Shown: in pieces, positions 3,763-57,316 of the stretch
How positions within the stretch are numbered: the stretch's first letter is position 1
Layout: the number at the start of each line of letters is the position of its first letter
DNA from: a virus
Taxonomy: Duplodnaviria; Caudoviricetes
Length of the DNA: 64,000 nt
Virus record (IMG/VR): IMGVR_UViG_3300037400_005024
Span: 64,001 to 128,000 of that record
Reading direction: 5' to 3' (one strand)
Translations under genes and position numbers: made by a program
The notes under the pieces: generated by a model
Databases searched by the model: none
What the model was told of the DNA's origin: nothing
What the model saw: only the letters and a program-made list of their open reading frames with translations

Positions 3763-4114
3763 AGAATTTAATATCTAAACTATCCTCTTTTAAAAAATTT
3801 TTACATATGCAATCTATCAATTCTTCTTTTGATAAACCTTGTGTTTTTGAAATAAATACATGTGCTCTTCTTATATATATGAGTTTTAAAACAAATTCTT
3901 TAATAAAACCTATAGTCTTTGTTATCGGTATAAGAACTAATAACATCATAACTATAGGAAAACAAATACATTCTATAATATTTTTAAATGTTATTATTTG
4001 AGAAAAATATAACTTAACGCATGTTTCAATAAAAACAAGCACAAGTACACTAGAGATATAAAAATCTAAAAGTGCAATGAATGTGCTAAATTCAGCTAAC
4101 TCAACAAATAGCAT
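3731..4114 (-). CDS. Hypothetical membrane protein
   Basis: Two hydrophobic segments; overlaps both neighbours in an operon. Confidence 0.55.
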   Translation of the reverse strand: MLFVELAEFSTFIALLDFYISSVLVLVFIETCVKLYFSQIITFKNIIECICFPIVMMLLVLIPITKTIGFIKEFVLKLIYIRRAHVFISKTQGLSKEELIDCICKNFLKEDSLDIKFYVNDEDIHLE

Positions 4115-4802
4115 TTAATTCACAAAAACATGCTAGTATATTAAGATATTTATCACGTACTCTTGTTCCCATATCTTGATACTTTGCTAGAATTACAATT
4201 GCTCTTGAAATCTGTTCTGGCTTACTGAATAACTTATCAATATTTTTATAAAGAACACTGAAAAATGCATCAGGACAAGTTAAATTCTGAACACTCTTTG
4301 AAAGATTTTCAAAACTCTTTGATTTTAAAGCATTTATAATATCACTTAATTCATCATTTGAAATACCAGAAACATTAAGTTCACCTGTACTTGAATACTT
4401 TCTGAGATCAACTATCATACCTCTAACAGAAGGATAATTTTTATCAATAATCTTTCTGATTGACGAATTATCAAACTTAATATTCTCGTTATTAAGAATG
4501 AATAAAATTCTATTAACAATCTGAGGAACCATGTCAGTTTTGTCAAAATCTACAAAATCATAGTTTTCAAGTCTATTTAAAAGAGGTTCGATGATATTTT
4601 CTTTATAATTTCCTGTAAAAACGAATCTGCAATTGTTTGAAAATTCATCAATGAATCCGCGGTATGCAGCCTGTGCGTCCGGGGTTAATCTGTCACAATT
4701 ATGTGTTACAATACCGTTTTTTGTAATGAAAGTATGATTCTTGTGAACAGTTAAATTAATAACATGACCTTCATTTATTCTTTTTATACTTTTTATCTTC
4801 AT
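4101..4802 (-). CDS. gp44: Clamp loader large subunit C-terminal half, preceded by a 35-aa split-intein IntC
   Basis: MKIKSIK...NHTFITKNGIVTHN|CDRLTPDAQAAYR...CRFVFTGN..IIEPLLNR: intein blocks F/G followed by RFC-type AAA+ motifs. Confidence 0.92.
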   Translation of the reverse strand: MKIKSIKRINEGHVINLTVHKNHTFITKNGIVTHNCDRLTPDAQAAYRGFIDEFSNNCRFVFTGNYKENIIEPLLNRLENYDFVDFDKTDMVPQIVNRILFILNNENIKFDNSSIRKIIDKNYPSVRGMIVDLRKYSSTGELNVSGISNDELSDIINALKSKSFENLSKSVQNLTCPDAFFSVLYKNIDKLFSKPEQISRAIVILAKYQDMGTRVRDKYLNILACFCELNAIC

Positions 4803-6253
4803 TCAAAACATCTCCAAAGCTTTCTACAATAATCCTTCAAATCATCAGGAATATATGAAAACACATTATTATTATAATTTAATTTAAAGTAATTTTCATC
4901 GATTACCCTAAAACTCTTATTATTTTCTTTGCAATATTTTATTGCAGCATTAAATTTTAAAATATTTGTCTCATTTGTTTTACATGAGTTTGGCTTTATT
5001 TCAAATAATGTATTTTTATCAGAGAAGTCTACAATATAATTTCGTTTGTTTCCATCAATAATATATGGTATTCTAACTTTCTCATAATCTAATTTGTTTT
5101 TCTTAATTTTACACTCAATTATATAAAATAAAAATTCCCAGGATGATCTAAATTTAATATTATCAATTTTAAACTTTTTAGAATGTGTCCACGAATTTGT
5201 AATATTTGGTGTAAATCTACCTTCAGCAATTGCATTTTTTAATTTGTTAGATAAATTTTTACGATATTCATCACTTCGTTCATACAATGAAAAACATTTA
5301 TTATAACACTTTCGTGAGCATGAAAATGTTGCTCCTATTTGAATCAACTGAAGTTTTCCGTCTTTTAAGATTTTATCATATTTAACATATTTTTTCCCGC
5401 AACACGCACATGTATTAAGCATATCAGGTTCATAAATTTTATTAAAAACAAATGAAAATGATGAATTAACTTGGGGACGTTGCAAAAAATAATTGTTAAA
5501 AATAATTGCGCGATCATATAATAAATTTTTAATTTGTTTAAAAGTATATTTGCGTGATAATTCTAATAATTTTGAATTTGAAAATTTTTTCAATTTTAAA
5601 TTAAGCAAATATAGTTTAAAATCAATTTCTGAAAATTTCTTGTAATCATCATAATATTTCATTAGGTGTCCTTTGTTACATCCATGACAAATACAAGGAT
5701 TTTTAGAAAATAAATTTATTATAATCTTATGTTTACAAAATATACATTTAGACTCTCGATCAAATAGTTTTAAAAATATTCTCTTTTTAAACGATGCTGG
5801 ACTTTTAATAACTCTATTATCGTAAATATCTTTAAAAGGAAATTTAACATTTTTATAAAATTCAAGATTGTTTAGAACAAATTCGCTATATTGCTGTCTA
5901 TGCAAATTTTTTGTTTCAATATTATTTTTTAAAAATAATTTTCTCGTACATTCTTTATTGGAACATGTTTGGCCGTACCCTTTAAAAATGCTAATAAATC
6001 TCGCAGCATTTTGACAAAATAAGCATTTGCAAACATTATCATTGTTTAATTTATTAAACAATTTTTGAGGCGTTAAATTTTTGTATTTGCTAAAAAAATT
6101 AGTAGGCCTAACTTTTGAAATATGCTTTAATAAAATTTCACGTTCATTTTTTGAAAACACAATTTCGTTTTCATTTTCGTTCTTATCAAATATTTCAATC
6201 TTTTCAAGAATTCCTGAAATATCAGAAGTAGCAGACGATATCATCGTTTTCAT
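4799..6253 (-). CDS. Free-standing homing-endonuclease-like protein (CxxC repeats plus TnsA-like PD-(D/E)xK domain)
   Basis: FRSSWE...YEKVRIPY...NYIVDF...FEIKP; several CxxC pairs; lies between the two gp44 halves. Confidence 0.8.
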   Translation of the reverse strand: MKTMISSATSDISGILEKIEIFDKNENENEIVFSKNEREILLKHISKVRPTNFFSKYKNLTPQKLFNKLNNDNVCKCLFCQNAARFISIFKGYGQTCSNKECTRKLFLKNNIETKNLHRQQYSEFVLNNLEFYKNVKFPFKDIYDNRVIKSPASFKKRIFLKLFDRESKCIFCKHKIIINLFSKNPCICHGCNKGHLMKYYDDYKKFSEIDFKLYLLNLKLKKFSNSKLLELSRKYTFKQIKNLLYDRAIIFNNYFLQRPQVNSSFSFVFNKIYEPDMLNTCACCGKKYVKYDKILKDGKLQLIQIGATFSCSRKCYNKCFSLYERSDEYRKNLSNKLKNAIAEGRFTPNITNSWTHSKKFKIDNIKFRSSWEFLFYIIECKIKKNKLDYEKVRIPYIIDGNKRNYIVDFSDKNTLFEIKPNSCKTNETNILKFNAAIKYCKENNKSFRVIDENYFKLNYNNNVFSYIPDDLKDYCRKLWRCFE

Positions 6254-6857
6254 TTAAACCTTCTTTAATACTCTTCTGAATGAATTTACCATTTTCTCTA
6301 ACGATAAATGGGTGATTATCGGTTACTTTAATTGTTCTACCATCAGCAAGTTCAACTTGATAAATTGTATCATTTTTAGATGAAATAACTTCGCATGTAT
6401 CATCTTCGAATGAACCAGTATTCATGTTGAAAGACTTACATTTGTAAATTTTACCAATTTCAAGGTCTTTTAACTTCCTTGGAACTTCTTTATTGTCTTC
6501 AATTAAAATTACTTCTTCATTTTCATCTAAGCACTCATCCATAATTACAACTTTCAGTTTATTCGAAATTGAACGTCTTGATGCAAATGAATGAATTTCA
6601 TTTCTAATTAAGTCAATACCTTTATTTAAAGATGCGTTTACCCAGTATGCTTCAACGTTTTGATGATTTGCAATTGCATTTGCTAGACTTGACTTACCTA
6701 GACCTGGTAAGTATGACCAAAGTCCTAAGTTCGGTAGTGTTCCATTTTCAAGTCCAGTTTTAATAGAAGTTCTGAGTTTTTCTGGTAAAATAACATCATC
6801 AATTGTCTGTGGTTTGTATTTTTCAGACCAAATGGACTGCTTTTCATCAATTAGCAT
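6222..6857 (-). CDS. gp44: Clamp loader large subunit N-terminal half fused to a 103-aa split-intein IntN
   Basis: WSEKYKP, PGLGKSS (Walker A), NAS, VVIMDE|CLDENEEV (intein block A at 6533), VTDNHPF (block B). Confidence 0.92.
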   Translation of the reverse strand: MLIDEKQSIWSEKYKPQTIDDVILPEKLRTSIKTGLENGTLPNLGLWSYLPGLGKSSLANAIANHQNVEAYWVNASLNKGIDLIRNEIHSFASRRSISNKLKVVIMDECLDENEEVILIEDNKEVPRKLKDLEIGKIYKCKSFNMNTGSFEDDTCEVISSKNDTIYQVELADGRTIKVTDNHPFIVRENGKFIQKSIKEGLNENDDIVCYF

Positions 6858-6956
6858 GTTTAATCCTCTGTTTAAAAATTGAAGACATTTTTTTTTTTAA
6901 AGTGTCTTAAAACGTCTTCAATAATATTTTAATACTGTAACACTAAATTCAGGTTA

Positions 6957-7976
6957 TTAACCTAAAAGATTTTCAATCTTTAACTTCTTATCTTTAGGTT
7001 CTAAATCAGAATTCATAATATTTCTAATACCTTCTTTATTTGTTTCAGTAATCAGAATAGGTTTTACAAGTGATTCTAAAGGTCTATTTTCAGAAATTGC
7101 CTTTTTAGCTCTGACCCAATTTACTTTAGCGTTGAAAATACCTTTCTTAAGATCTAATCTTACTAAGTCAAAACCCCATTTAGATAAGAATTTTGAAGTG
7201 CTTTCAATACATCTTTCAGGAAGATTTGAAAATGTTGAAACACCCTGAGTAATTGCCGGAGTCTGATAACCTACAGGAAGAACTTCAGTACCATTTCCAT
7301 AAATCATTTCCTGAATCAGAATGTCAAAATCTTCCCATCCTGAGTTAACATCGTAATTAATGTTCTTTTCTTTAGCAAATTTTGAATTTATCTGAATAAC
7401 TTGAATACCCTGCGCATTATGCTTTGTAAAGTTAGGCATGTTTTCAATATCACAGAATCTGAAAGCTGTCCAATTCATAAGTCCTGAATACTTATAATCG
7501 TATTTCTTTGTTAAAAATGTCCAGAACTTAAAAAGAAAATCATACGAAATTTTAAAAGGAGCATTCACAGACTTTTCTGTTTTATATGGAAGTACAAAAT
7601 TTGTACAATCATCTTCAACTAAGAAAGCATTTTCAATATTTTTACTTTGTAATAAATCTATAACGTACTTACGCTTATTTGCTAAACCTGGAATTTCCGA
7701 ATCATCATAAAAATGACACTTAAAATCTGTGTACTTTTCTTTATTAGACTCAGATGTTACAACTAAATAATTTGAATAACCATCTAAGTTAACTAAAAAC
7801 TTTGAACGTTTTGGATTAAAATCATGTGATAATACTATAACTGGAAATGCTTCAAATTCAGGATTATTTTTTAAATAATCTCTAAATTCAATAAATTCAC
7901 TTACAAATGGTAAATCTTTAACTAAATCAATATACTTGTTTAAATCGTTTAGGTCTTTTTCTGAAAACATATTCAA
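6957..7976 (-). CDS. GT-A-fold glycosyltransferase resembling DNA-base glycosyltransferases
   Basis: GLANKRKYVIDL, FLVEDD, WEDFDILIQ motifs as in the T-even glucosyl-hmC glucosyltransferase/TAGT family. Confidence 0.6.
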   Translation of the reverse strand: MNMFSEKDLNDLNKYIDLVKDLPFVSEFIEFRDYLKNNPEFEAFPVIVLSHDFNPKRSKFLVNLDGYSNYLVVTSESNKEKYTDFKCHFYDDSEIPGLANKRKYVIDLLQSKNIENAFLVEDDCTNFVLPYKTEKSVNAPFKISYDFLFKFWTFLTKKYDYKYSGLMNWTAFRFCDIENMPNFTKHNAQGIQVIQINSKFAKEKNINYDVNSGWEDFDILIQEMIYGNGTEVLPVGYQTPAITQGVSTFSNLPERCIESTSKFLSKWGFDLVRLDLKKGIFNAKVNWVRAKKAISENRPLESLVKPILITETNKEGIRNIMNSDLEPKDKKLKIENLLG

Positions 7977-7982
7977 TTTCCT

Positions 7983-9434
7983 TTAAAAGTAAAAATAATC
8001 CAATGACTCTAGATATTCATCTGGTGTTCCAAATGAAAGGTATTCATTTACTAAAATTGTCTTATATTTCAAATACTTAAATGCAGAATCAAGGTAAAAT
8101 TCTCCATTTACTCTGTCATCTTTTTCAAACTGCTTTTCAATTGCTTCGATAAGTTTCTGATTATCTTTAACCCAGAACGAACCAATTAAAACATTTTGAT
8201 CCATTGATTTTCTTTGTTTAATAGATAATTCAGAGTCTGAACACCATGAAAATGAGTTAAGATTATGAATCTGATAATCAGTTGGCTTTGTAACAAAAAT
8301 TATAGCATCATAATCAGATTTGTACTCTTCAATATCTGGATAATTGCATAAAAGATCGCAAGGAACAATTAAAGTTTCACCTTTTAAATTCTTTAAAGAT
8401 GAATAATATGAAAATGATGCACCTATCTTGTTTGATGGAACGTAGTTTAATAAATCTGTATCAGGTGTAGTTTCCCAGAATCTTCTATGCTCCTTTGAAC
8501 AAACAATCTGATTAGCGTTTATAGAATTTTTAATGATTGAGTACAGCGGTTTGTTATCAACTGGTAAAAATGGCTTTGGTACTTTATAATTAAGTTTTAA
8601 AAATCTTTCACCTTTACCAGCAGCTAAAATGATTCTGTTTTTAGCTGTACAGTTATTATTTAAAGAGAAGTTTAAACACTTTTTAACATGTTCAAGATCT
8701 TCAGGTGTACCTAACTGATAAAATTTATCAACTGAATTAAATGCAAAACCGTCAATGTATCTGTATAATAATGAACAGTAAAATTCGCCATTTAGGCATT
8801 CATCTGAAACTTTAGAATTTAAAAGTTTTTCTGAACTCTCTAAAAGAAGGTCAACAGAACTGAAATAGTAAATACCAGGACTCCAGAGTTCTTCAAGTCT
8901 ATTCTTTGAATTGTACTTTTCAAAAACTGCTTGAATTTGATTATTTGATTTTACTTTATAAGCGGCATAAACGTTTTTTGGATTTTTTAAATTAGGATGA
9001 TTTCCTGAATAACATGGAACAACACCAAAATCTTTATTAGTTTCTTTTAATTCTGAAATAGTATCTAAAAACTTTTGATAATCCCATTTAACTCCAAAAT
9101 CGCAGTATGAAACTATCAGATCACCTTTAATAGATGAAATTTCATCTTTAACTGCGTAAATTGTGCCAACAGGACCATTTTTAACAAATTCAGAATCTTT
9201 TATAGTAAAAATCTTTGTTTTTAAATTCTTATTCTTTAAAAAATCTGTTAAATCGTTTAAAACAGATTCCCTAACAATGAAATAAAAATTGTCTGATTTA
9301 TCAAAAGAATCTAAAACAAAATCTAAAACTTTTCTGTTATTCTTTTCATCTACAGTAATAAATGGCTTGTACTCTTTATAACCAGCATTTTTGAAACGTG
9401 TTCCAAAGCCAGTCATTGGAATTAAAATATTCAT
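7983..9434 (-). CDS. Sugar-phosphate nucleotidyltransferase with two tandem domains
   Basis: IPMTGFGTRF..YKPF...LGTPEDL, then ILAAGKGERF..PKPF...FGTPDEY. Confidence 0.85.
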   Translation of the reverse strand: MNILIPMTGFGTRFKNAGYKEYKPFITVDEKNNRKVLDFVLDSFDKSDNFYFIVRESVLNDLTDFLKNKNLKTKIFTIKDSEFVKNGPVGTIYAVKDEISSIKGDLIVSYCDFGVKWDYQKFLDTISELKETNKDFGVVPCYSGNHPNLKNPKNVYAAYKVKSNNQIQAVFEKYNSKNRLEELWSPGIYYFSSVDLLLESSEKLLNSKVSDECLNGEFYCSLLYRYIDGFAFNSVDKFYQLGTPEDLEHVKKCLNFSLNNNCTAKNRIILAAGKGERFLKLNYKVPKPFLPVDNKPLYSIIKNSINANQIVCSKEHRRFWETTPDTDLLNYVPSNKIGASFSYYSSLKNLKGETLIVPCDLLCNYPDIEEYKSDYDAIIFVTKPTDYQIHNLNSFSWCSDSELSIKQRKSMDQNVLIGSFWVKDNQKLIEAIEKQFEKDDRVNGEFYLDSAFKYLKYKTILVNEYLSFGTPDEYLESLDYFYF

Positions 9435-10102
9435 TATTTAGTCCTCTTTAAATTCTGTCTGTAAACTTCATCTGGTGTTAACAGTTTATTACACTGTTCT
9501 GTACTCAAAGTATCTAATTCAAGATTAGATGATTTTATGAAAAGTGAAATATATGCATTAGCAAGAATCTGTTCAGGATTATCCTGCATTACAAAATCAT
9601 CTGGACAGTAGAAATACTTAATCTTTGGTTTATACTCTGCAAGATCATCTATTATCTCAGAGCATTCTGAAGCTGAATCACTCTGAACAATGACACCGTG
9701 ATTTCTTAGGAAAATCAACTTATTATCACCGATTGTACAGTCTGAAAGATCTGCACCAGGTGTTCTGTATTCTACAATCTTTGGATTATATTTTGAGAAT
9801 CTATCTAAAAGAGCACCTGAGATAATTGGAATAATATAAATTGGATGATAATGCAAAACAAACTTGAACTTTGAATTTTTATGCATTCCAATTTCTAAAG
9901 ATGCTTTTCTAGAATCGTTTTCATGAATAATCTGAAAAGGTTCTCTAAGCGCTGTTCCGGATGCTTTAATGTAAAGACCATCTAAAGTTTTAACAGAAAC
10001 ATTACCACCATATCCAGGAGAATCTAAAACATTTCCAATTTTAGATGTTATTTCTACTAAATCATCTAAATCGTTTTGTATTATCATACTATCTTCAAAC
10101 AT
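9434..10102 (-). CDS. Class II aldolase/adducin-family protein
   Basis: GGNVSVK, IKASG, SLEIGMH, HYHP, LRNHGV. Confidence 0.85.
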   Translation of the reverse strand: MFEDSMIIQNDLDDLVEITSKIGNVLDSPGYGGNVSVKTLDGLYIKASGTALREPFQIIHENDSRKASLEIGMHKNSKFKFVLHYHPIYIIPIISGALLDRFSKYNPKIVEYRTPGADLSDCTIGDNKLIFLRNHGVIVQSDSASECSEIIDDLAEYKPKIKYFYCPDDFVMQDNPEQILANAYISLFIKSSNLELDTLSTEQCNKLLTPDEVYRQNLKRTK

Positions 10103-11351
10103 AAAGTATTTCCTTAATTCTTTTACTTAATTCAACTGGTAATTCATTTTCAGAGCATTTAAAATTTTGAACAAAATCTAACTCGTTTTTAAATTGAACT
10201 TCACAAATTTCATTTTCTGTTTTAACTAAAATATTTGCAAAATCTTTCTGAATATTTATGTATTTCTTAAAATCTTCATCTCTTTCTTTTATAGATTGTA
10301 TCACTCTTTCAGGTGTTTTATCACGCGACCTAGAATCTCTTAAAACTTTTCTAGAATCAGCATTTTCATTATCTAAGTAAATTTTGATTTTGATGAAATC
10401 ACCGGTAACCTCAGGATATAAAGTGTGCAATCCGTCAATTATCACAAATTCAGAATTTTTAAATTTTTTGGGTTCGTCAAAATAACCAGTATCATGATTA
10501 TAAATAGGAATTAAGACGTCATTTTTCCAAAAGATATCTTGAACATCAAGTCCTAACTGGACAAGGTTATTTGCTTCTGGATTGTAATGAGTTAAACGTT
10601 TCCAAGCATCAGAATATCTGTGATATTTATGATAACCATCTGTTTCAATCTGAGAACCATTAAAAATTTTGCAAAGTTCAGAACTCAGAGTTGATTTTCC
10701 TGCACCAGATTTTCCAGTAATTGAAATAATGTTTCTATCTAAGGAAAATGGATATGAATAAATTTCGAACTCTGAAAAATTGTCATGATTTGAATCACCA
10801 ATCATAATACATTCTTCTGGCTTAGACTTTGTCAATTCAAGTGCTTTATCTATTAAACACTTTGAAGGCTTTTCTGATTCAAATTCTGAACTTGTAACGA
10901 TGAAATCAAATAAATCTGAAATTCCTGAGTTTTCAAGTCTCTTAATTTGTTCTAAAAGATAATAATCTGTAATTGCACAAATCTTTTTATCTTTGAAAAA
11001 TTTTAAAGTTTCGATCATAATTTCAGAAACTCTATCATTTTTAAGCACTTCATCTAAAAAGTAGTTGTACATTTCAGGTAATTCTGTAAAAGAACGACCA
11101 GAATTATCTAAAAGTGTTTTAAAATAAAGTTTTCTATTATGAGAAGAAGACCTCAAATTTCTGCTTTTAACAGAATCTTTTGCTTTATTAAAATCATCAT
11201 ATGAAAAACCAAATCTCTCTAATGTCTTTAATTCTGCAATTGAATTTGTTTTAGAACTATAGAAAATAGTATTATCTAAATCTATTAAAATTGTTTTGAA
11301 AATCTGATTTGATTTTTCAATATTCTGAATTGCTCTTATTAAAAAATTCAT
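10095..11351 (-). CDS. HAD phosphatase fused to a phosphoribulokinase/uridine-kinase domain
   Basis: DLDNT, EKP, MIGDS; then GKSGAGKST, DGYHKY, IDGLH. Confidence 0.85.
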   Translation of the reverse strand: MNFLIRAIQNIEKSNQIFKTILIDLDNTIFYSSKTNSIAELKTLERFGFSYDDFNKAKDSVKSRNLRSSSHNRKLYFKTLLDNSGRSFTELPEMYNYFLDEVLKNDRVSEIMIETLKFFKDKKICAITDYYLLEQIKRLENSGISDLFDFIVTSSEFESEKPSKCLIDKALELTKSKPEECIMIGDSNHDNFSEFEIYSYPFSLDRNIISITGKSGAGKSTLSSELCKIFNGSQIETDGYHKYHRYSDAWKRLTHYNPEANNLVQLGLDVQDIFWKNDVLIPIYNHDTGYFDEPKKFKNSEFVIIDGLHTLYPEVTGDFIKIKIYLDNENADSRKVLRDSRSRDKTPERVIQSIKERDEDFKKYINIQKDFANILVKTENEICEVQFKNELDFVQNFKCSENELPVELSKRIKEILYV

Positions 11352-11990
11352 TTAATCTTCTCTGAAAAACTTTGGTGATTTTGTACAAATTGAAACATCA
11401 AGATCTTTTACAAATCTTTTAAAATCTTTTAAGTCTTTATCAGTATTTAAATCAAAACCAAAAACATCAGGCGCAGTTAGAATAATATCTGGGTCATAAC
11501 CTAATGTGTAACAACAATCTTTTATCATTAGAATATGATTCAAAATTGAACATTTTGAATTACACATTTTAGTATCAATCCAAAACTTTGTTGCTTCTGA
11601 CCTTTTCACTAGTGAAACTGATAGTGGTTCAAAATCTGATACTCTTATTATAAAATGACCTTTGTATCTTTCATCGGTTTTACAGTATTTTAAAATATCT
11701 GGAATTTGAGAATCTAGAAAATAAACATTGTCTCTAAAACCGTTAAAACCATATTTAAATAACTTTTCTTCGATACCTGATTCTTTAGCATTCGCAATAA
11801 TGGTTTTATTTGTACTTAAGACATTTTTAAAAGTATCTAAAACAGGATAACTTGAATAATCATGTGAAACAATGATATTGTTTCCGCGTTCTAAATATCT
11901 AAAATCTATTTCAAAACCATCAAAGTCTTCAAAAGCTGATAAATTAGAATTTTTAAAATCTGAAACTTGAAATCTATGCAAATAAATCAC
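11352..11990 (-). CDS. GDPD/PLC-like phosphodiesterase-fold protein
   Basis: LHR, GFEIDFR, VSHD, NAKE, FLD, RVSDFE, ICT motifs. Confidence 0.65.
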   Translation of the reverse strand: MIYLHRFQVSDFKNSNLSAFEDFDGFEIDFRYLERGNNIIVSHDYSSYPVLDTFKNVLSTNKTIIANAKESGIEEKLFKYGFNGFRDNVYFLDSQIPDILKYCKTDERYKGHFIIRVSDFEPLSVSLVKRSEATKFWIDTKMCNSKCSILNHILMIKDCCYTLGYDPDIILTAPDVFGFDLNTDKDLKDFKRFVKDLDVSICTKSPKFFRED

Positions 11991-56359: not shown

Positions 56360-57292
56360 TTAAACTGCCATTTCAAACTTTAAAGGTTCGTCATGAACAT
56401 AATTCTCTAAGACAAAATCCGATGTCTTAACTGACTTTAAAATATCATCTAAACTCATATTCTGATAATCCAAATCTGGCATTTTCAGTTGAGGCAATTG
56501 ATGAGGAATCCTCTTCAACTGAACTTTAGCAGAGTCAATGTGATTTTTATAAATGTGAGTATCACCAAAATTGCCAATGAGTTCTAATGGAATTTTACCT
56601 GTCATCTTTGCAATGATGTTTAATAAAAGTGCATAACTTGCAATGTTAAAAGGTAATCCTGTGCAGGAATCGATTGATCTTTGATTCCACATTAAACTCA
56701 AGTACTGATTTTCAGGTCCTGAAACATAGAACTGAAAACTGTAATGACAAGGAGGTAGTGCCATATTTTCTAGTTCAGGAACGTTCCATGCACTTACTAG
56801 TAATCTTCTAGAATGAGGATTGTTTTTAATCTCATTTATTACGTTAGTTAACTGATCAAATTCTTGAATTGCGTATGTTATTGTTTTGCCTAACTTTGAA
56901 TGACCATTTCCAGCAAGTGCTTTCCAATGTCTCCAGTTATAACCATAAATTGGACCTAACTCACCATTGCCATATCCAAGATTCTTGCCTTGATTTTGAT
57001 AATTTAAGGTCCAAATTGTTTTCTTCTCCTTTTCAGTTAACTGATCATAAGGTTTGTTATCGTTCTTAATTTCAGCTAAACGATGTTCATTAGTAGAACC
57101 TTCTAAGAACCAAAGTAATTCCGAGACAACCGAACGCCAGGCGAGCGATTTCGTTGTAACAGCTGGAAAGCCATCTTTTAAATTGAACCTAAGTGACCTT
57201 CCAAAGACTGAAATTGTACCAACTCCAGTTCTATCGTGTCTTTCTTCGCCGTTTTCTAAAATGTCTTCTAATAAATCTAAGTAATTTTTCAT
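56360..57292 (-). CDS. thyA: Thymidylate synthase
   Basis: DRTGVGT, ELLWF, SRR, LPPCH, QRSID, PFNIASY, DTHIY. Confidence 0.96.
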   Translation of the reverse strand: MKNYLDLLEDILENGEERHDRTGVGTISVFGRSLRFNLKDGFPAVTTKSLAWRSVVSELLWFLEGSTNEHRLAEIKNDNKPYDQLTEKEKKTIWTLNYQNQGKNLGYGNGELGPIYGYNWRHWKALAGNGHSKLGKTITYAIQEFDQLTNVINEIKNNPHSRRLLVSAWNVPELENMALPPCHYSFQFYVSGPENQYLSLMWNQRSIDSCTGLPFNIASYALLLNIIAKMTGKIPLELIGNFGDTHIYKNHIDSAKVQLKRIPHQLPQLKMPDLDYQNMSLDDILKSVKTSDFVLENYVHDEPLKFEMAV

Positions 57293-57316
57293 AAGAAATT
57301 CCTTTAAGAGATTAAA

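Follow-up and report, generated by a model that had tools for sequence, protein, structure and literature searches.

Sugars on the cytosines of phage DNA determine whether a phage is open to attack by particular restriction, CRISPR, glycosylase and type IV systems, and they also hamper sequencing and engineering. To our knowledge, pathways with a dedicated or known donor have been elucidated only for glucose-type and arabinose-type sugars. The present analysis concerns a five-gene operon in a 64,000-nucleotide stretch of a Caudoviricetes virus, referred to below as the window, which corresponds to bases 64001–128000 of the complete 158,253-bp IMG/VR record IMGVR_UViG_3300037400_005024 with direct terminal repeats. 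The operon encodes a glycerophosphodiester phosphodiesterase (GDPD)-like protein, a HAD phosphatase fused to a kinase of the phosphoribulokinase (PRK) type, a class II aldolase-family enzyme, a double nucleotidyltransferase (NTase) and a TAGT-like glycosyltransferase (GT), and it suggests a third donor pathway, chemically distinct from those two and based on a kinase of the Calvin-cycle type. As judged from its genes, it would extend the known glycosylation of phage cytosine, with a link to an unsolved capsule pathway of Campylobacter; no such DNA decoration has been described chemically.

The glucosylated 5-hydroxymethylcytosine (hmC) of the T-even phages involves gp42, gp56, gp1 and the alpha- and beta-glucosyltransferases in T4, and TAGT (PF20691) in T2 and T6. 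Shared with this system are a gp42-type hydroxymethylase, a gp56-like dCTPase, a T4-like backbone, a GT-A enzyme of the same TAGT kind as in T2 and T6 and, presumably, the transfer of a sugar to hmC after replication. The present phage differs in that no alpha- or beta-glucosyltransferase was found, and in that the donor would be the product of a four-gene phage pathway instead of host UDP-glucose; its TAGT-like enzyme is solitary, so it would have to act on bare hmC. The arabinosyl-5-hydroxycytosine route of phages RB69, DLP3 and HY126 uses an arabinose-5-phosphate isomerase, the kinase/nucleotidyltransferase AfhE, the HAD phosphatase AfhF and GT-B arabinosyltransferases (PMC13326640). Its logic would be common to both, in that ribulose-5-phosphate receives a second phosphate from a kinase, a HAD enzyme removes the 5-phosphate, and an NTase step is followed by transfer to a modified cytosine; in both, a thymidylate-synthase homologue and a nucleotide kinase are part of the gene cluster. 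The enzymes, in contrast, are unrelated: there is no SIS isomerase, the kinase is of the PRK and not the APH type, the GT is GT-A and not GT-B, the base is predicted to be hmC (Asp) and not 5-hydroxycytosine (Asn), and the operon adds the class II aldolase-family enzyme, the GDPD phosphodiesterase and a second NTase domain. An RB69-type arabinosylation pathway was excluded, since neither the SIS isomerase (PF01380, arabinose-5-phosphate isomerase type) nor GT-B Glycos_transf_1 (PF00534) was found in the complete genome, both controls being positive in 14 of 14 genomes.

In the TET/5mYOX clusters of metagenomic phages, glycosyltransferases that vary in their glycan and are related to cell-envelope enzymes put glycans directly on 5hmC in DNA (PMC8256090; bioRxiv 10.1101/2023.12.21.572611), a step that would be common to the present system. 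In those clusters 5hmC is made on the DNA by a methyltransferase and a dioxygenase and the donors are host hexose, HexNAc or heptose, whereas here 5hmC would come from the nucleotide pool and the cluster holds its own sugar pathway; aldolase, kinase and nucleotidyltransferase are not mentioned in bioRxiv 10.1101/2023.12.21.572611.

The five open reading frames (ORFs) that a preliminary description had placed on the minus strand at 11990–11352, 11351–10095, 10102–9434, 9434–7983 and 7976–6957 were all recovered, and its domain labels for the five genes were upheld by profile, structure and motif comparisons. From gene 1 to gene 5, with lengths in amino acids (aa), they are:

11352..11990, minus strand: GDPD-fold phosphodiesterase, 212 aa, operon gene 1 (GTG start, GGAG ribosome-binding site)
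10095..11351, minus strand: HAD-IA phosphatase (residues 18–190) and phosphoribulokinase-type kinase (residues 208–378+), 418 aa (Pfam, NCBIfam, PDB)
9434..10102, minus strand: class II aldolase/epimerase-family Zn enzyme, 222 aa (Pfam Aldolase_II)
7983..9434, minus strand: tandem double sugar-phosphate nucleotidyltransferase, 483 aa (phrog_3980, NTP_transferase)
6957..7970 (probable), minus strand: soluble TAGT-kind GT-A glycosyltransferase, 339 aa by the first-start rule with the ORF at 7976–6957 (TAGT, phrog_842)

The junctions along the operon are, in the same order, a 0-nt gap, an 8-nt overlap, a 1-nt overlap and a 6-nt gap. As described before, the genes lie between uvsW (13648–12062) and an intein-split gp44 (6857–4101). 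All five proteins are soluble, and the operon has the G+C content of the genome (28.8%), in which profile searches recovered a T4-like gene set including uvsW, the gp44 clamp loader and Hsp20.

The kinase, on which the proposed pathway is built, is part of the 418-aa protein that matches Pfam PRK at 5e-24 and HAD_2 at 4e-15. It aligns with the Synechococcus PRK structure 6hzk at 1.7e-24, with 6kev and 9qko also within 1e-23 to 2e-24, and is far closer to PRK than to uridine kinase, both in the PDB (3asy, 7e-7) and in NCBIfam (phosphoribulokinase 1.3e-42 against uridine kinase 5e-18). The P-loop and the DxYH..R, PIYNHxTG, GLH and K..RD..R motifs of cyanobacterial PRK are all kept, and the PRK motifs are invariant among the phage homologues of the fusion. 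The NCBIfam phosphoribulokinase match amounts to 146 bits against a cut-off of 236 and covers profile positions 10–185 of 326; the kinase lacks the C-terminal domain of PRK (about 330 aa at full length) and its N-terminus is joined to the HAD domain. In the latter, DxDxT, T128, K161 and GDSxxD are invariant and all four HAD-IA motifs are present. A haloarchaeal ribulose-1,5-bisphosphate (RuBP) 5-phosphatase (NF053830) was tried as an identity for the HAD domain and rejected, the match of 54.8 bits (E 1e-14) standing against a 330-bit cut-off and a generic HAD-IA model scoring higher.

The product of gene 1 had no match in Pfam, PHROG or NCBIfam, and its family comprises 82 representative clusters in an exhaustive HMMER search. 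An AlphaFold2 (AF2) model built from 45 members (pLDDT 91.4) adopts a TIM-barrel fold, and in a Foldseek search of the PDB its top matches were the glycerophosphodiester phosphodiesterases 1o1z, 2pz0 and 1zcc (TM 0.62–0.66); across many GDPD structures the TM values were 0.62–0.69. Residues H5, K69, S118, E121, W137, D139, P174 and C202 are invariant in the 45 members, while R6, E27, D29, R31 and H43, like the HR, ExD and HD motifs, occur in at least 90% of them. By sequence the kinship is faint, the profile reaching only E 0.14 against a GDPD in the PDB and PF03009 matching 1 of the 45 members; fold neighbours and motifs nevertheless agree with the earlier label of GDPD-like for this gene.

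The aldolase gene matches Pfam Aldolase_II (PF00596) with 28.1 bits against a cut-off of 22.2. GGNxS, E70, H74, H84-x-H86 and N134-H135-G136 are invariant in phage and bacterial homologues, and the enzyme thus holds the catalytic glutamate (E70) and the three zinc-binding histidines (H84, H86 and H135) of its family. Its reaction may be that of an aldolase, an epimerase or a dehydratase, among which the sequence does not distinguish. The double NTase belongs to phrog_3980 (1.3e-46). Each of its halves keeps the GxGxRF...KP and CD motifs, and the internal duplication was also found as a high-scoring segment pair. The N-terminal half matches the NDP-sugar pyrophosphorylase 4evw in the PDB at 9e-4; the C-terminal half contains the NTP_transferase domain, and its highest scores are with GlmU- and RmlA-like sugar-1-phosphate NTases.

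The acceptor base is suggested by genes lying outside the window. In agreement with the earlier statement that the window holds no hydroxymethylase, no gp42-type one was found there; a search of the complete record (G000) recovered such a gene at G000:60991–61653, about 2.3 kb before the first base of the window and about 9 kb from the operon. Its product matches T4 dCMP hydroxymethylase (1b49) at 5.4e-73 and keeps both the catalytic cysteine (MCT) and the cytosine-specifying aspartate ((K/R)ND), which are C148 and D179 in T4. It reads RSCD, with Asp at the position of E. coli ThyA D169, like RSND of T4 gp42. Asn at this position marks 5-hydroxycytosine synthases (PMC13326640), and an RB69-type 5-hydroxycytosine synthase was excluded on this ground. 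The adjoining 173-aa gene appears to be a gp56-like dCTPase, matching phrog_173 (NTP pyrophosphohydrolase) at 3.5e-25, with only a weak dUTPase_2 match in Pfam. From these two genes the phage most likely makes its hmC acceptor by the T4 route. In the complete genome no match was found for alpha- or beta-glucosyltransferase or for TET/JBP, results that are weak as the control genomes were equally empty. A canonical ThyA of 318 aa (Pfam 5e-94) is encoded in the window at 56363–57316 on the minus strand, and thus coexists with the hydroxymethylase and dCTPase pair (G000:60450–61653). A thymidylate-kinase-like gene at G000:52801–53331 is homologous to the kinase that heads the cluster of the second phage lineage described below.

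Profile scans showed the TAGT-like gene to be the only DNA-type GT in the genome. When 6957–7976 was compared with TAGT and T-even glucosyltransferase profiles, the proposed kinship was borne out by matches to TAGT and to phrog_842 (5e-4; beta-glucosyl-HMC-alpha-glucosyltransferase, the T2/T6 enzyme group), the TAGT score staying below the curated cut-off (23.6 bits for PF20691 in the whole-genome scan). Several homologues at 80–95% identity bear a precomputed PF20691 match. Among the BFVD structures closest to the AF2 model of the GT, the top matches are TAGT-domain phage proteins, from phiRSL1 and, as a beta-Glc-HMC GT, from Klebsiella phage PKO111; matches 1, 5, 8, 18 and 22 are TAGT-domain proteins and match 39 is a beta-glucosyl-HMC-alpha-GT. 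An acidic EDD motif with invariant D122 and D123 is of the GT-A type, and the protein has no hydrophobic segment. The extent of the ORF agrees with the coordinates 6957–7976 given earlier, but translation more likely starts at the ATG at 7970 than at the first start, 7976, as the former has a ribosome-binding site (AAAGGAAA) and agrees with the starts of the homologues. Solitary TAGT homologues of unknown function occur in 288 of 753 phage genomes (PMC13216743), and the operon offers a concrete case of one with its own donor pathway.

The linkage of these genes is kept in other phages. Metagenome relatives whose GT is 80–95% identical hold all five genes between uvsW and gp44; an apparent loss of the aldolase gene in contig L007 was dismissed, the scaffold having a gap of Ns there. 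A second, distant lineage (L016–L019 from IMG/VR and L011 from ENA; G+C content 32–36%, 30–47% identity) contains, contiguously and in this order, a nucleotide kinase, a gp42-like hydroxymethylase, GDPD, HAD-PRK, aldolase, double NTase and TAGT, an architecture shared with the cytosine-hypermodification clusters of RB69 and DLP3. A single 674-aa protein at L013:1199–3223 combines HAD, PRK and aldolase, and further fusions of 671–695 aa were found in metagenomic contigs (P0164, P0166, P0174, P0176, P0178, P0181 and P0183); such recurrent triple fusions suggest that the three activities act in one pathway, by the Rosetta-stone argument. In contig L005, of 5 kb, whose GT is 68% identical, the GT and two GDPD-like paralogues fill the stretch between uvsW and gp44, and PRK, aldolase and NTase genes are missing there. 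As only the GDPD-like genes and the GT are retained there, the three central genes behave as a cassette, and this phage may rely on a host-made donor. The second paralogue, a 180-aa gene after the GT (L005:2005–2547), is about 33% identical to the first, so that the GT is flanked by both; the GDPD enzyme seems to act in connection with the GT step.

Downstream of the second-lineage cluster, a C5 cytosine DNA-methylase-like gene (PF00145, 7.6e-16) lies at L011:7342–8547, L016:7532–8722 and L019:12231–13481, adjoining TAGT in the first two and separated from it by a small ORF in L019. Such a gene is odd in a phage expected to lack unmodified cytosine; no homologue of it was found in the present genome.

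Among 50,697 GenBank phages, the operon DNA had no match, the GT, GDPD and aldolase proteins had no tblastn match, and HAD-PRK gave two weak tblastn matches to the HAD part only, with no full-length fusion. The double NTase has only remote relatives in isolated phages, located in the sugar clusters of cyanophages S-SM2 and Bellamy. These 'LPS-like' clusters share with the operon a double NTase (27% identity over 98% of the length) placed one gene from a class II aldolase-family gene; they differ in containing many other sugar genes and in showing neither a PRK-HAD fusion nor a GDPD or TAGT gene. In S-SM2 (L001, 154113–157421 of the record) the gene between the double NTase and the aldolase-family gene is GT61-like (Glyco_transf_61, 2.8e-17). 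A PfkB-type kinase is encoded nearby, and the cluster may represent a related sugar pathway with a different kinase.

Outside phages, GDPD-like, HAD-PRK, Aldolase_II and double NTase genes occur in the same order in bacterial kps capsule loci, located via a protein database search. In Helicobacter winghamensis, Campylobacter sp. RM9929 and C. lanienae (L041, L043 and L045), all four ORFs align with the phage proteins by BLASTP at 30–43% identity; in C. jejuni (many genomes; L047–L050) the cassette was recognized by gene order and Pfam domains, with HAD-PRK and aldolase also aligned. HAD-PRK homologues are further present in C. coli, C. lari, C. hepaticus, C. insulaenigrae and H. pullorum. When bacterial genome contigs were scanned with the HAD-PRK alignment, only generic HAD domains came up, since both patterns derived from the HAD half. 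The bacterial cassettes adjoin heptose and O-methyl-phosphoramidate (MeOPN) genes and are followed by DUF8374, DUF2972 or TagF-like transferases, never by TAGT in the loci examined; the phages, in contrast, have TAGT and the link to dCMP hydroxymethylase in place of these transferases. DUF8374 (PF28160) and DUF2972 are presumably linked to the MeOPN transferases of C. jejuni. One DUF8374 protein in C. jejuni and in Campylobacter sp. RM9929 also carries DUF2972 and is encoded beside MeOPN genes, while TagF-like genes lie downstream of the H. winghamensis cassette. A 'HAD / phosphoribulokinase domain protein' beside putative capsule genes is annotated in C. coli (PMC3928612).

From this arrangement, the four genes appear to form a unit that supplies glycan transferases or phosphotransferases, which the phages would have swapped for TAGT. 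In a maximum-likelihood tree of HAD-PRK, the present phage lineage sits on its own long branch and groups neither with the other phage lineage nor with the main Campylobacter/Helicobacter clade, which unites 8 of the 9 bacterial rows; given this deep split between phage and bacterial proteins, the sharing is old and not a recent capture, and the tree does not resolve the direction of transfer.

With a probability of roughly 0.66, we read the operon as a system for DNA hypermodification, in which ribulose-5-phosphate is converted into a nucleotide-activated pentulose or pentose that is then attached to hmC in DNA. The preliminary description had likewise proposed a new sugar-activation route feeding a DNA glycosyltransferase, and the proposal gains support from the hmC genes, the sole TAGT-like GT, the linkage in the second lineage and the PRK motifs. 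The position of the operon amid replication genes, kept in close relatives, also counts for action on DNA. We infer the substrates, products, order of steps and DNA acceptor from the observed domain identities, conserved catalytic residues, hmC genes and linkage. In the proposed scheme, the gp42-type hydroxymethylase and the gp56-like dCTPase would swap cytosine for hmC. The PRK domain would phosphorylate C1 of ribulose-5-phosphate to give ribulose-1,5-bisphosphate, from which the fused HAD domain would take off one phosphate, probably the 5-phosphate, and the class II aldolase-family zinc enzyme would epimerise or rearrange the resulting pentulose phosphate. The two NTase domains and the GDPD-fold phosphodiesterase would yield the final NDP-sugar, which the soluble TAGT-type GT-A enzyme would move onto the hydroxymethyl group of hmC in replicated DNA. 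DNA modified in this way would be shielded from restriction, CRISPR and glycosylase-type defences. The sugar is probably new to DNA. The capsules of C. jejuni are known to contain only three pentoses, among them the D-xylulose of strain RM1221 (PMC10919079, PMC8707391), and for that reason xylulose is a candidate for the identity of the sugar.

Several observations weigh against this interpretation. T2/T6 TAGT adds a second sugar to glucosyl-hmC and not to bare hmC. The GT reaches 22.4 bits (E 1.3e-4) with Pfam TAGT, under the gathering cut-off of 27.5 bits, and its AF2 model is of moderate confidence (pLDDT 67, pTM 0.68). The phosphate of the PRK product sits on a primary, non-anomeric carbon, which leaves the origin of a glycosyl donor unexplained, and contig L005 leaves the role of GDPD not confidently accounted for. 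Both the capsule use of the four-gene cassette in bacteria and the 'LPS' location of the NTase relatives in cyanophages indicate that the product is not intrinsically a DNA sugar. Finally, the phage is uncultured and known from its genome sequence.

The most economical route that may account for the misplaced phosphate uses every domain once and would put a ketopentofuranose, xylulose or ribulose, on hmC; we regard this 'phosphate walk' as speculative and would not bet on it. PRK would add the 1-phosphate and HAD would strip the 5-phosphate, freeing O5 to close the furanose ring; the aldolase-family enzyme would epimerise C3, and NTase domain 1 would make an NDP-1-ketose. Via a 1,2-cyclic phosphate, the GDPD-fold enzyme would then bring the phosphate onto the anomeric O2, and NTase domain 2 would convert the resulting 2-phosphate into a true ketosyl donor. 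Such a proposal would explain the presence of two NTase domains together with a phosphodiesterase.

The main alternative to the modification of DNA, though in our judgement an unlikely one, is the remodelling of a surface glycan, in which the activated sugar of the capsule cassette would be put on the host capsule, on lipooligosaccharide or on a protein of the virion, perhaps as a means of preventing superinfection or changing receptors. The kps loci of H. winghamensis, Campylobacter sp. RM9929, C. lanienae and C. jejuni speak for it, as does the finding that, among isolated phages, double-NTase homologues are confined to the sugar clusters of S-SM2 and Bellamy, but the GT is of the kind that acts on DNA bases and lacks a membrane segment, and the transferases that follow the bacterial cassettes, DUF8374 or TagF-like, are never TAGT. 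Moreover, the cluster of the second lineage is contiguous with dCMP hydroxymethylase and a nucleotide kinase, and the present operon stands between uvsW and the clamp loader, not among structural genes. The capsule loci also bear on a phospho-sugar of the teichoic-acid type, for which the NTases would make a CDP-linked pentulose or pentitol 1-phosphate, to be attached to hmC by a phosphodiester in place of a glycoside or trimmed by GDPD. A phosphate on a primary carbon, as left by PRK, is what CDP-ribitol, CDP-glycerol and CDP-6-fructose carry (PMC10918830); the bacterial NTase homologues show faint IspD matches and precede TagF-like Glyphos_transf and DUF8374/DUF2972 genes, and a phosphodiesterase is part of the cassette. 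We nevertheless consider this chemistry improbable, as the known activity of TAGT-type GT-A enzymes that have a DXD motif is glycosyl transfer and not phosphotransfer (PMC13216743), the C-terminal NTase half is closest to the sugar-1-phosphate NTases GlmU and RmlA, and no TagF-like gene was found in the complete phage genome, where the control was positive.

Very improbable is a set of uncoupled functions, with the GT taking a host nucleotide sugar (e.g. UDP-glucose) while PRK, HAD and aldolase, as auxiliary metabolic genes, rewire the pentose-phosphate flux of the host for nucleotides. PRK, a HAD RuBP phosphatase and a class II ribulose-1-phosphate aldolase do form a catabolic route in haloarchaea, one in which nucleotidyltransferases have no role. 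L005, with its GT and GDPD-like genes but no PRK, aldolase or NTase, would fit such a separation; it is, however, just a 5-kb contig, and the sugar genes may sit elsewhere or the host may supply the donor. Against the separation also stand the translational coupling of the genes and their joint occurrence, all five in at least two phage lineages and four, without the GT, in bacteria.

If DNA hypermodification is indeed the function, phages and hosts would use one sugar pathway for two different polymers, and the GT might provide a new enzymatic label for 5hmC. The five soluble enzymes are a concrete set open to reconstitution, and solving the phage pathway would assign a missing step of capsule biosynthesis in the food-borne pathogen C. 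jejuni, the cassette also being present in C. coli, C. lari and enterohepatic Helicobacter. If the sugar is a ketose, it would be the first keto-sugar on DNA, and the phosphate walk, if true, would account for the acid-labile branches that ketoses form in Campylobacter capsules, the D-xylulose of RM1221 being one of them. No paper was found on PRK- or GDPD-linked DNA hypermodification, on the cassette or on a ketose or pentulose on hmC, subscription journals lying outside the search.

This stretch or close relatives of it are present in bovine-gut and pig-gut metagenomes from several studies. A host within the Campylobacterota is plausible from the low G+C content, the origin in animal guts and the group to which the closest cellular homologues of the cassette belong. 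Contigs from bovine-gut RNA libraries, representing relatives of about 90% identity, span the whole operon, one of them (4.6 kb) covering 6535–11150; such contigs can hold DNA. In the 71-nt gap downstream of uvsW, CATAAATA matches the T4 late consensus TATAAATA in 7 of 8 positions, and the same gap contains AT-rich -10-like hexamers. For the promoter, which the preliminary description had taken as middle-type rather than late, a consensus scan gave 47 sites against 48 expected by chance, and a terminator scan was likewise not above chance. A candidate for the end of the operon was read by eye between the GT stop and the gp44 start:

6874..6921, minus strand: possible operon-end hairpin, TTGAAGAC / 27-nt loop / GTCTTCAA / TTTTT

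Its arms form an 8-bp inverted repeat; the 27-nt loop exceeds the 8-nt loop limit of the terminator scan, which did not list the hairpin.

The neighbouring gp44 (4101–6857) is interrupted by an intein, which contains the gene of a 484-aa endonuclease with a TnsA-like N-terminal domain. In the relatives gp44 takes several forms, being intact in L004 and L005 (305–306 aa), a single intein-bearing ORF of 453 aa in L009, and split halves without the endonuclease in L007 and L008. Bovine-gut contigs join position 4803 to 6247, skipping the endonuclease gene.

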